Positions 2,497-15,683 of a stretch of DNA of 64,000 bases are shown here, in pieces (the stretch's first letter is position 1; each line of letters begins with the position of its first letter). Source of the DNA: an uncultured Muribaculaceae bacterium (GTDB lineage Bacteria; Bacteroidota; Bacteroidia; Bacteroidales; Muribaculaceae); assembly GCA_910587075.1 (NCBI GenBank), contig CAJUKE010000011.1, forward strand, positions 5,071 to 69,070. Reading direction: 5' to 3'. The position numbers were made by a program, and so were the translations under genes. The notes under the pieces are model-generated. The model had not been told where the DNA came from. It did not search any database and saw only the letters and a list, made by a program, of their open reading frames with translations.

Positions 2497-2533
2497 CAAT
2501 AAACAGCAACCTAACTTCTAAAAATATACCGCA

Positions 2534-2977
2534 ATGATTATCGGAACATTGGAAAACGCCGAGCGCTACTATCCGCTCCACCCCGGCTTCAAGCCCCTCT
2601 TTGAATTCGTCAAAGGCAACGACTTCGACAAACTCCCCGCCGGGAAAATCTACCTCCAGGGCAAGGACGTGTTCGTGAACAACGCCACCATCGAGCCCAA
2701 GAAGGCCGAGAACCAGCCCCTGGAGATGCACCGCGACTACATCGACGTGCACATCGCCCTCGAAGACGGCGAAGTGTTCGGCTGGAAGCCCATCGAAAAC
2801 CTCAGCAAGCAGGGCGAATACAACGAGGCCAAGGACTGCGCCCTCGTCGACGATCCCGCCGAAATCTACGTCACCCTCAAAAAGGGCGACTTCGTGATCG
2901 TCTACCCCGAAGACCCCCACGCCCCCAACATCGGCACCTCGACCATCCGCAAAGTCATCGGCAAAATCCGCCTCTGA
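2534..2977 (+). CDS. YhcH/YjgK/YiaL (DUF386) family protein
   Basis: 147 aa; LEMHRDYIDVH and FVIVYPEDPHAP..IRKVIGKI motifs. Confidence 0.88.
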   Translation: MIIGTLENAERYYPLHPGFKPLFEFVKGNDFDKLPAGKIYLQGKDVFVNNATIEPKKAENQPLEMHRDYIDVHIALEDGEVFGWKPIENLSKQGEYNEAKDCALVDDPAEIYVTLKKGDFVIVYPEDPHAPNIGTSTIRKVIGKIRL

Positions 2978-3019
2978 TACCCCCATTCCCCGGCCCACCC
3001 CGGCACGGGCAAAAATACC

Positions 3020-3065
3020 CCGGCACGCGCCCTGCCCCTCGGCTCAGCGCGTGCCGGCTTTCTTT
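3020..3065 (+). terminator. Intrinsic terminator-like hairpin between convergent genes
   Basis: CCGGCACGCGC / GCGCGTGCCGG 11-bp stem followed by CTTTCTTT. Confidence 0.6.
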
Positions 3066-3079
3066 ACGCCCATTTATGC

Positions 3080-4033
3080 TTACGCCATCACCGAAGCGCC
3101 CGCCGAGGCCGCTATAGCTTCGGCCAAAGCGTTCATTGAAAGCGCCTGTGAGCGGCTTACCACAGTTCTTCGCAGTTTGTCGGGCCAAGGGGCGAGCAGC
3201 AACAACCTACCCTCGGCACAAAGATCAAACTCCCGGCCCGCAGGTTTGAAGCGCTCCTCGAACCCCTCGTTGCGAAGAACTATAACGCGGCCACCCATCT
3301 CTATCGCCCGGTTGCGGACCTCCTTTTCTGCCTTACTGATGAACGGCGATACCAGAACTCCCCCGTTGTCTGCGCAGGCCAGCCATTCATCAACCTTACT
3401 GCTTCGGACCTCTTCCGTATCGGCTCTGTGGATAATCACGGCTCTAATATCATAGTCGTGCAGTAGGAATATATTGCCGTAGGCCGCTAACTCCCTGCCG
3501 GCGATTGAGATATGGTTGAATCGCTGGAAAAGGTCAGGGTTCGCGGCCTTTACAGCCGCCCGGCGGGGATTGTCGGCTATGTACCGCGTGGCCGCTACCA
3601 TATGTGCGTCGTCCCAGATAATGCGGTCGTTAAAGCCCCGACAGAAAAGCGATTTTACCTCGTTGTGCCCCCCGAGTAGCGCCCATCGCTTTGAGCAAGC
3701 CCCCTTGAATCCGCCTATATACGCGCCTAATGGTTTTGGCATAGTATGGGTTACCGCTGCGGTGAAGTGTATATGGTCAGGCATTATAACAGAGCCTATA
3801 ATCCAAATATATGGTTGCCGCTCATGAATGCCGAGCATCGCGTCGCGCACGTCCATACCCAAGGGGGTGAGGCTCAATACCCTCCTTTGGAAATCAAATA
3901 CCGCCAACGGCGGTGCTCCCGCTACCCTGGTGATGGTAATCATATACCGCCCCGGCCTGGTGTAGTCATGAAAGAACGCCCTGTGGGTATTCCGGTGTAC
4001 TGGCTCCCGCGACGCGAAACGAGAATTTCTCAT
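3080..4033 (-). CDS. HUH/Y1 tyrosine transposase (RAYT-like) fused to a C-terminal DprA/SMF(SLOG)-like domain
   Basis: N-half: HDY..PGRYMITI, VIMPDHIH (HUH), FNDRII, RYIADNP (catalytic Tyr). C-half: GNIFLL, VLVSPFISKAEK, GGRVIVL, GRLLLLAPW, SMNALA follow the DprA Rossmann-fold pattern. Confidence 0.75.
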   Translation of the reverse strand: MRNSRFASREPVHRNTHRAFFHDYTRPGRYMITITRVAGAPPLAVFDFQRRVLSLTPLGMDVRDAMLGIHERQPYIWIIGSVIMPDHIHFTAAVTHTMPKPLGAYIGGFKGACSKRWALLGGHNEVKSLFCRGFNDRIIWDDAHMVAATRYIADNPRRAAVKAANPDLFQRFNHISIAGRELAAYGNIFLLHDYDIRAVIIHRADTEEVRSSKVDEWLACADNGGVLVSPFISKAEKEVRNRAIEMGGRVIVLRNEGFEERFKPAGREFDLCAEGRLLLLAPWPDKLRRTVVSRSQALSMNALAEAIAASAGASVMA

Positions 4034-4080
4034 TGGTTAAGAGGGTGCTAAGGGTTTAAACTTGGGGGAGTGAATTGAGC

Positions 4081-4123
4081 GCTCGGCTTTCGCCTCGCCA
4101 CAGTGGCGAGGCGAAAGCCGAGC
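4081..4123. repeat. Perfect palindrome, 21-bp arms, 1-nt spacer
   Basis: GCTCGGCTTTCGCCTCGCCAC-A-GTGGCGAGGCGAAAGCCGAGC. Confidence 0.95.
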
Positions 4124-4131
4124 TAAAGAGT

Positions 4132-5211
4132 TTAGGAGGGTGAAGAGGAAGAAGGAGAGGAGGGAGAGGAGGGAGAGGAGGGAGAGGAGGGGGAAGAGGG
4201 GGCGGGAGGGAACGGGAGGGCGCTGAAGGTTTTGCGGCGGAGGAGGTAGTAGGAGAGGATGACGTTGCGGCGCTGGAGGGGTTCGCGGAGGAGGTTTCGG
4301 TCGGGGTGGGTGGTGTAGAGGCGGCGCATACGACGGAAGTCGCGGTGGGCCTTGAGGATGGCGCGGGCGTTGGCGAAATCCAGGGAGGCCATAAATTTGA
4401 ACCAAGCGATGGTGTCGAGGAGCCGCCGGCGCAGAAGGGTACCGAATAGGTCGCGGCGGGGTATGTTCTTATGCAGCAACAGGAGGTTGTTGCGGAAGTT
4501 GAGGTAGGTTTTCCGCGGGTTGGAGGCGGGGAGCGAGCCGCCTCCGAGATGGTAGACACTCGAAGCGGGCACAGCGTCGACGGTGTAGCCCGCGAGCTGT
4601 ATGCGCCAGCAGAGGTCGATTTCCTCCATATGGGCGAAGAATTCCTTATCGAGCCCCCCTACCCTCTCGTAAAGGTCGGAGCGGGTCAGCAGCGCCGCCC
4701 CGGAGGCCCACATAACCTTCATTGGCGTGTCGTACTGGCCGCGGTCGGCCTCGGTGGTGTCGAAAATGCGTCCGCGGCAATAGGGATAGCCGTCGCGGTC
4801 GAGCAGCCCTCCGGCCGCCCCAGCGTATTCAAACGAGCCCTTATCCCTGTAGCTTAATATTTTCGGCTGACAGGCTCCGCACTCAGGGTGCTCGTCCATA
4901 TAGGCAGCGAGCGGCTCCAGCCACCCCGAAGGCACCTCAACGTCGGAGTTTAGGAGCAGCGTCAGTGGGTAGCGCGTGGCCGCGATGGCGCGGTTGTAAC
5001 CCTCGGCGAAACCGTAATTCTCGTCGAACGCGAGTACCTTTACGCCCGGAAACTCCTCCCGGAGCACCGCGAGCGATTCATCGGTACTGCCGTTGTCGGC
5101 CACTATCACGTCGGCCAATCCGGCATCGGTATTGGCAACCACTGAGGGGAGGAACTCGCGAAGCAGTTTCGCCCCGTTCCAGTTAAGGATGATTACCGCT
5201 ATTTTTTTCAT
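4132..5211 (-). CDS. Glycosyltransferase family 2
   Basis: IAVIILNWNG, VADNGSTD, NYGFAEGYN, LLNSD, FFAHMEEIDLCWR; C-terminus runs into a (SSP)n repeat. Confidence 0.92.
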   Translation of the reverse strand: MKKIAVIILNWNGAKLLREFLPSVVANTDAGLADVIVADNGSTDESLAVLREEFPGVKVLAFDENYGFAEGYNRAIAATRYPLTLLLNSDVEVPSGWLEPLAAYMDEHPECGACQPKILSYRDKGSFEYAGAAGGLLDRDGYPYCRGRIFDTTEADRGQYDTPMKVMWASGAALLTRSDLYERVGGLDKEFFAHMEEIDLCWRIQLAGYTVDAVPASSVYHLGGGSLPASNPRKTYLNFRNNLLLLHKNIPRRDLFGTLLRRRLLDTIAWFKFMASLDFANARAILKAHRDFRRMRRLYTTHPDRNLLREPLQRRNVILSYYLLRRKTFSALPFPPAPSSPSSPSSPSSPSSPSSSSPS

Positions 5212-15544: not shown

Positions 15545-15683
15545 GGCCCGCCCCGCTCTACCCATCTCGCCTCGCCATCCCGCCATCCCGCCTCCGCGCT
15601 CCACGCCTCCGCGGTGCCCCGTGTGGAGCGAGCGTAAGCGAGCGGCTTCCCGCTCCTTTTTCCAATCAAGCCAATCATTACCG

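Follow-up and report, generated by a model that had tools for sequence, protein, structure and literature searches.

A predicted RAYT-type nuclease fused to a shortened DprA-clade domain in Muribaculaceae, with dispersed hairpin repeats as candidate substrates

The fusion gene and its nuclease half

The window, i.e. the entire stretch of 64,000 nucleotides under study, belongs to a genome (G000) that was compared with four close genomes (G002, G206, G207 and G209). It carries the open reading frame that the sequence-only reading had described as a transposase fused to a DprA-like domain; the frame stands as delimited there, and so do its neighbors, a yhcH and a GT2 glycosyltransferase gene that border it as a variable slot (Table 1), and the missing tnpB partner, none being seen among the ORFs beside the fusion gene. 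The weaker GC bias noted earlier is likewise found (GC3 of 0.63 versus 0.77-0.87 in four neighbors; GC of the gene 0.557), an equally low GC3 occurring in 13% of the 1598 ORFs of the genome. A promoter and terminator scan gave no promoter upstream of the fusion gene with sigma-70 patterns, which are not known to cover Bacteroidota. The hairpin downstream of the gene is terminator-like, with a degenerate and mismatch-closed tip; long copies of it are absent elsewhere in the genome, and it is also present in G207, which is devoid of the fusion gene at this slot. DNA of the window was found in mouse-gut metagenomes. Two metatranscriptome runs shared words with positions 2500-4800 at fractions of 0.35 and 0.31, which is no evidence for expression of the gene. 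At positions 4125-4215, a 9-bp purine-rich tandem repeat adds a Ser-Pro-Ser tail to the GT2 reading frame; G207 is without this tail.

Table 1. Features of the fusion locus in the window (positions of the window; residues numbered along the fusion protein).
Feature	Position	Strand	Basis
RAYT-DprA fusion gene	3080..4033	-	317 aa ORF; homologs; AlphaFold2 model, pLDDT 90
HUH-Y1 nuclease domain (predicted), residues 14-165; H87, H89, Y151	3539..3994	-	NCBIfam; Y1_Tnp in homologs; fold
Shortened DprA-clade (SLOG) domain (predicted), residues 167-311; R203, E236, R294, N301	3101..3535	-	Fold search; residue counts; profile match to short stand-alone DprA-like proteins
yhcH/DUF386 gene, border of the variable slot	2534..2977	+	PF04074, E 2e-44
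GT2 glycosyltransferase gene, other slot border, upstream of the fusion gene	4132..5211	-	PF00535, E 3e-21
Hairpin 3' of the fusion gene, between the convergent yhcH and fusion genes	3020..3057	.	Fold z -3.1
Perfect 43-bp palindrome, two inverted REP-like units	4081..4123	.	+ unit 4103-4123; - unit 4081-4101

A Pfam search with the fusion protein alone gave no domain match, and single-sequence searches of PDB and Pfam yielded nothing useful. The NCBIfam model NF047646 (REP_Tyr_transpos) matched residues 50-160 (E 2e-9; 37.4 bits, below the curated cut-off of 80), and Y1_Tnp was matched by 96 of the 110 aligned homologs (E <=1). The best structural match of the AlphaFold2 full-length model (pTM 0.86) was the E. 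coli TnpA-REP 4ER8 (Z 12.9, rmsd 3.7, 135 residues aligned; Foldseek rank 1), whereas the TnpA of IS608 reached a lower Z (11.2; rmsd 2.8, 104 aligned); the IS200/IS605 TnpA proteins of IS608 and ISDra2 share the Y1 HUH core (Foldseek E 2e-5 to 1e-3). H87, H89 and Y151 are kept in 108 of 108 non-redundant full-length ORFs, a set chosen for intact frames in a family in which broken copies occur, and N155 and P156 are present in 100%. An HUH motif combined with a single catalytic tyrosine within YxxNP is the arrangement of class 2. According to motif and model, the N-terminal half is a RAYT/TnpA-REP-type HUH-Y1 nuclease of predicted activity, in agreement with the sequence-only call.

Hairpin repeats and the yhcH-GT2 slot

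The perfect palindrome, which had been overlooked before, lies 47 bp upstream of the start codon of the fusion gene (DNA fold z -9.1). Each arm consists of a GTGG foot, tandem G.A mismatches, a 3-bp stem and a GAAA loop; the single unit folds as two pairs, the tandem mismatch and three pairs, its foot being of the GTAG/GTGG kind, and it departs from the canonical REP rule of a fully paired basal stem of 7-20 nt, as given in the accessible text of Quentin 2018 (PMC6006769). When compared with Rfam, the palindrome drew only sub-threshold matches to miRNA precursors, which any long hairpin attracts.

The 18-nt repeat core has 11 exact matches in the genome, two of them at the locus, versus 0 for the reversed control, so that the fusion gene is flanked by REP hairpins with further genomic copies. 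The same genome holds four further full-length paralogs of 37-45% identity, five fusion genes in total, each with a different repeat at its side. Most of the repeats occur dispersed (63 exact copies for the four G.A-type families; only 3 copies, at one mismatch, for the repeat beside the paralog on contig C16), and the copies have spread without an accompanying gene. In the dispersed copies of G000 and G207, one arm is whole and the other is shortened or decayed, the full palindrome being found only at the gene; the one-armed form may mark the position of the cut or a strand-biased decay. Pyrimidine-rich flanks surround 58 of the 63 copies. In a Marinomonas enzyme, a GTGG foot is reported to have shifted the cut to CC (accessible part of PMC8266576), and these flanks would fit a CC cleavage guided by the foot.

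Of 104 loci of the family, 38 have the strict motif no more than 250 bp away (about 7 of them source loci of the motif or their orthologs), compared with 1.6 expected from shuffling and 1 of 48 far controls; the remaining 66 are without it. Any repeated 12-mer was detected in the flanks of 72 of 99 loci versus 5 of 72 controls; a flanking repeat is absent at 27 of the 99, and other clades carry other repeats. Independent checks gave a paired stem at 50 of 122 GA-NNN-GNNA-NNN-GA sites, and GA on both sides of 50 of 95 short C-GNNA-G hairpins. GTG precedes 56 of 68 hairpins on the 5' side and follows 3 of them; the feet of these 68 are GTGG (27), GTGC (17), GTGA (7), GTGT (5) or free of GTG (12). 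Hairpins within the genes are rare: the motif occurs in 4 of 108 genes and a 14-mer common to gene and flank in 12 of 108, the gene of the window having neither. In a tree of the N-terminal domain, obtained by quick search and with long-branch warnings, the type of hairpin stem tracks the clades, a pattern that kinship alone would also produce; the WQ-type RAYTs that stand alone in this genome fall into a clade of their own on a long branch.

Several further observations concern the repeats of the window's genome. Repeats of different paralog families cluster on contigs C20, C46, C48, C42, C41 and C38; 27 of the 63 copies have another repeat family within 250 bp, always on the same strand, and C20, the contig holding comM, carries 15 of the 63. 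The repeat family that belongs to the C3 paralog is also represented in the window, by one copy in an intergenic gap (15623-15643). Two stand-alone WQ-type RAYT genes (C35:11290-11808 and C16:25633-26200) are associated with classical GTAG repeats, of which 14 and 11 copies were found at one mismatch; another short Y1 gene, on C32, has repeats of its own. No Y1 gene was linked to the 16-mer family that is most frequent in the genome (72 matches with one mismatch, counting both strands) or to a second family, of 15-mers; these repeats lie mainly on C18, C22, C2 and C8.

Orthologs of 59-63% identity to the window protein occupy the position between yhcH and GT2 in G002, G206 and G209, with slot borders that are 95-99% (yhcH) and 84-87% (GT2) identical; with G207 included, the ranges are 95-100% and 84-96%. 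In G207, the site is filled otherwise: between flanks of 94-95% identity, its slot (L119:3029-3708) holds no fusion gene, but an AT-rich segment with a 52-aa ORF and a gene for a 172-aa GNAT acetyltransferase, and part of one hairpin arm is left. The hairpins of the orthologs differ from that of the window by paired changes on both sides of the stem. The window variant was matched 11 times in G000 (2 at the locus), once in G002 and 0 times in G206 and G209; a second variant 12 times in G002 (2 at the locus) and 0 times in G000; and a third variant 7 times in G206 (1 at the locus) and 0 times in G000. The variant of G209 is confined to its locus, and G207 contains 20 copies of the window variant despite the missing gene at the slot. 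The variant beside an ortholog is thus usually the variant that has spread in that genome. Of G207, 19 regions were compared with G000 and 7 of these aligned in detail. Two differ by the presence or absence of 48 and 38 bp; both lie in C-rich tracts, in which slippage may have caused a deletion, and neither has clean junctions. In four others a stretch is replaced or a larger indel is seen, and the last is common to both genomes.

Set beside the described TnpA-Y1 proteins, the fusion comes nearest to subclass 2.4 of class 2, to judge from the accessible text of Quentin et al. 2018 (PMC6006769). With E. coli TnpA-REP/RAYT it has in common the HUH and YxxNP motifs, the fold, the low copy number, a paralog identity of about 40%, and dispersed flanking hairpins with a GT[AG]G-like foot and a stem mismatch. 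It differs by a 145-aa DprA-like domain in place of a short C-terminal tail, by phenylalanine and a variable residue in place of the WQ motif, and by a hairpin stem of 2-4 bp with tandem G.A closure and a C-GN(N)A-G loop; the GTAG repeats set the WQ-type RAYTs of the same genome apart as well. All features of class 2 RAYTs that were tested are present except the canonical long stem and a score above the NCBIfam cut-off.

The added DprA-like domain

Modeled alone, the C-terminal half reached a pLDDT of 93. Its top match was the antitoxin ShosA (8ZVA; Z 11.0, rmsd 4.1, 136 residues aligned), followed by three DprA structures (Z 9.6, 9.2 and 8.2), with the next match at Z 5.0; among 48161 chains, the four at Z >=8 are all DprA or ShosA, and the DprA/SMF-like fold on which the sequence-only reading depended was found. 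By sequence, the link to DprA is weak, as PF02481 was matched by 1 of 107 C-domains (E 0.03). The earlier reading had not recorded that the domain is truncated at its C-terminus: the structural match stops at residue 153 of H. pylori DprA and 218 of S. pneumoniae DprA, and in 150 of 150 cases the proteins end 0-28 residues past the C-domain profile. The acidic RecA-binding triad (E235/D243/E265) and the dimer zone of pneumococcal DprA, as described in the accessible part of PMC4066776, lie beyond the matched range and are therefore absent here.

The ssDNA pocket of H. pylori DprA includes R52, N144, K137, R143 and F140; its R143E exchange lowers binding about 170-fold, and tight binding is attained only by the dimer (all from the accessible text of PMC3950713). 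As assigned via alignments and spacing, and counted over 107 rows, the place of R52 corresponds to R203 (Arg in 102 of 107), that of N144 to N301 (Asn in 107 of 107) and that of K137, seven residues before the asparagine, to Arg in 73 of 107; at the R143 place Met or Leu is found in 107 of 107, and phenylalanine occupies the F140 place in only 38. Both DprA signatures named in the same part of PMC3950713, G-S/T/A-R and F/L/Y-x-x-R-N, are altered, with Arg and Asn remaining and the Gly and second Arg lost, and the Gly-rich SGLAxG loop is replaced by SPFIS. Compared with DprA/Smf of H. pylori (4LJK) and S. pneumoniae (3UQZ), the domain shares a Rossmann-type fold over 128-130 residues, the Arg at the R52/R115 place, the Asn and, mostly, the Arg at the K137 place, whereas it is without SAM domain, C-terminal part, RecA triad and dimer zone, and stays below the Pfam cut-off. 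Compared with ShosA, in the accessible text of PMC12961424, the R139 place is kept, the R234 place is Met or Leu, and the domain is fused to a nuclease; a ShosT PRTase partner was found neither beside the window's fusion gene, whose neighbors are yhcH and GT2, nor among the 25 commonest neighbor families listed. Based on the models, the C-terminal half is a C-terminally shortened member of the DprA clade that falls outside DprA proper.

The genome carries a separate full dprA; hhalign of the C-domain gave 89% for short stand-alone DprA-like proteins versus 0.7% for the host dprA. Three of these Bacteroidota proteins (L155-L157; 154-178 aa) are the closest sequence relatives of the domain (E 6e-10 to 3e-8) and share its GN..L, EK and GRLL motifs; they differ by retaining C-S-R, S-G-x-H and R-N, by an extra strand and helix, by being unfused and by their location in defense-like islands. 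A family name for them was not found. Together with L154, they possibly represent an unnamed defense-island family that was the source of the fused domain.

Because the Arg and Asn of the pocket are kept and the pneumococcal dimer and RecA surface is missing, an ssDNA clamp acting in cis is likelier than a RecA loader. The conserved pocket Arg and Asn also make the earlier suggestion that the module protects ssDNA plausible as a prediction; its second part, a hand-over to recombination, is conjectural: the match ends before the RecA triad, and a complete dprA is already present in the genome. The residues K200/R206/N211, through which ShosA was modeled to contact RecA (accessible part of PMC12961424), fall within the matched range of the C-domain, so that a contact with RecA is possible for the fusion as well; these places and the many relatives behind comM keep the hand-over conceivable. 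A complex prediction of the C-domain with the RecA of the genome scored 0.00, which is evidence neither for nor against a contact.

Proposed mechanism and alternative readings

The reading that we favor, at a probability of roughly 0.6, is that of a REPtron retained by its host and equipped with a DprA-derived ssDNA clamp in cis; its first part alone, a REP-associated tyrosine transposase kept by the host, is very probable. The observations that carry it are the two domains, the conserved catalytic residues, the cognate dispersed repeats, the repeat polymorphism and the purifying selection described below. By homology to characterized enzymes, the HUH domain would bind its cognate GTG-footed, G.A-closed hairpin on transiently single-stranded DNA, nick near the hairpin through a phosphotyrosine link at Y151 and rejoin the strands, with slow spread and reshuffling of the repeat as the outcome. 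The DprA-derived domain would offer a second ssDNA pocket in cis that holds the flanking or incoming strand, and would occupy the place of the autoinhibitory tail of E. coli TnpA-REP, an enzyme that the accessible text of PMC3479197 portrays as monomeric, with a C-tail that inhibits it and a route of strand transfer that still lacks an explanation. The idea of a one-gene module that nicks hairpins is thereby supported as a prediction, a candidate hairpin substrate adjoining the gene. Points that count against the REPtron are the loci without motif, the locus-bound variant of G209, the copies in G207 without a slot gene, slippage and the broken copies; for the clamp, they are the only partly kept pocket, with its changed R143 and F140 places, and the missing dimer region.

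The earlier statement that such a fusion lacks a functional description agrees with the literature search, which gave none and did not extend to the 2015 SLOG-defining paper that possibly lists it; 'DprA' does not occur in the main text and two supplements of the RAYT classification (PMC6006769), and PMC9503650 contains neither 'RAYT' nor 'HUH' nor 'DprA'. New here are the placement of the fusion behind comM with allele swaps (see below) and the GNAT pair in the equivalent slot of G207. The accessible parts of PMC8266576 and PMC3479197 name as open questions by what route REPs spread and for what reason RAYT genes are kept by their hosts. For these questions, the family offers a natural add-on domain exactly where the E. 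coli enzyme has its inhibitory tail, several pairs of enzyme and repeat within one genome that allow specificity swaps, and a compact hairpin that gives a testable prediction of the cut site.

The most serious alternative, which we consider unlikely, couples the nuclease to recombination: the DprA-like domain would tie it to the natural-transformation machinery (ComM or RecA) and place it as a hairpin-guided nuclease on ComM-driven D-loops, where it would cut its own REPs on ssDNA in or entering the D-loop, set recombination ends there and favor the exchange of its own locus. It draws on the genomic neighborhood, in which comM is the commonest neighbor (14, in a scan of 150 of 196 neighbor ORFs). 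In a direct search, 18 of 96 non-redundant loci had comM upstream of the fusion with both genes on one strand, and among the 201 sampled genomes from the host family the two are adjacent in 10 of the 24 fusion genomes with a listed comM place, in 9 genera (cross-read from two listings, with comM unlisted in 12 further genomes and no comM match in 2). The comM-adjacent fusions have 31-88% mutual identity and differing downstream genes. Since the distances of comM and fusion barely correlate (Spearman 0.14, Mantel p 0.05), the sequences indicate that fusion alleles are exchanged at the comM site: in L021/L032, comM is 65% and the fusion 84% identical, in L028/L044 88% and 57%. DprA is reported to recruit ComM to the D-loop in transformation (bioRxiv 10.1101/2024.02.06.579203, accessible part), and the modeled ShosA-RecA contacts belong to the retained region. 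However, the gene of the window, its four paralogs and 78 of the 96 loci are not at comM, and the adjacency is explicable without functional coupling by an old site that was refilled repeatedly, as at the yhcH-GT2 slot; the location of the pneumococcal RecA triad and dimer zone outside the match and the greater nearness of the domain to stand-alone proteins than to host dprA likewise argue against coupling. Should this doubtful reading be true, REPs would be programmed recombination ends, the locus behind comM would be repeatedly exchanged and RAYTs would have a host function. Owing to the recurrent site, it can be tested directly in gut Bacteroidales whether RAYTs are connected with natural transformation.

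A defense or stress switch, with the SLOG-type domain as a sensor of a nucleotide or of phage ssDNA that would release the nuclease for an abortive or anti-element role, appears quite improbable. It would account for the defense antitoxin as top fold match, for the stand-alone relatives L154-L157, which lie beside genes for a macro-domain protein, an R-M methylase, an NYN nuclease and a DUF5655/NucS-like protein, and for the 52-aa ORF and GNAT gene in the slot of G207, a pair that we take to resemble a toxin-antitoxin module. The nucleotide-binding SLOG folds (LOG, Moco carrier, YpsA), however, matched the C-terminal half at only Z 3.5-4.9, the loop replacement by SPFIS speaks against nucleotide sensing, and no family occurred on more than one ORF among the PADLOC matches listed (150 of 196 neighbor ORFs); PADLOC applied to the C-domains themselves gave no consistent match (3 of 107 at best). 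Restriction operons were not seen as neighbors of the fusion in this set, in which Muribaculaceae predominate. In one clade (L020, L031, L033, L043 and L045), the fusion lies next to or between paralogs of the endonuclease I family.

Distribution and copy number could suggest an autonomous element of the IS200/IS605 kind, which would move on its own between its hairpin ends. The search recovered 707 homologs at E <=0.001 among 5969 candidates; full-length fusions were counted, from the listing, in 38 of the 201 sampled genomes of the host family in a patchy pattern, with up to 6 copies per genome, and in 0 of 400 other genomes of the phylum, 4 of which have a short DprA-like gene that stands alone. 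With five paralogs, the fusion gene is not confined to one copy, nor is it fixed, a result in line with the sequence-only reading; its neighborhood is diverse (102 clusters among 150 neighbor ORFs) and its GC3 low. Self-mobility is nevertheless very improbable, given that near-identical copies as in IS200/IS605 are lacking, that the orthologs stay in the same slot while their sequences have diverged, that the YxxNP motif and the closest fold are those of the class 2 TnpA-REP proteins, unlike the TnpA of IS608 and ISDra2, and that the repeats are mobile without the gene.

That an otherwise ordinary RAYT merely carries the C-domain along as an inert or purely structural part, as its truncation and the change of two of four H. 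pylori signature residues might be taken to mean, is scarcely credible: both domains are under purifying selection, with a median dN/dS of 0.12 for the nuclease half (20 pairs) and 0.11 for the DprA-like half (21 pairs), these being the usable pairs of 30, with the remainder saturated or too close; mean identity is higher in the DprA-like half (0.40) than in the nuclease half (0.36); G186, N187, E236 and N301 are invariant; and the C-domain profile is matched by 1755 clusters at 50% identity. Within the best 150 of these matches, HUH and YxxNP were detected upstream by pattern in 119 and as variant motifs in 4, while 27 fragment-like cases are without all or part of the N-terminal half.
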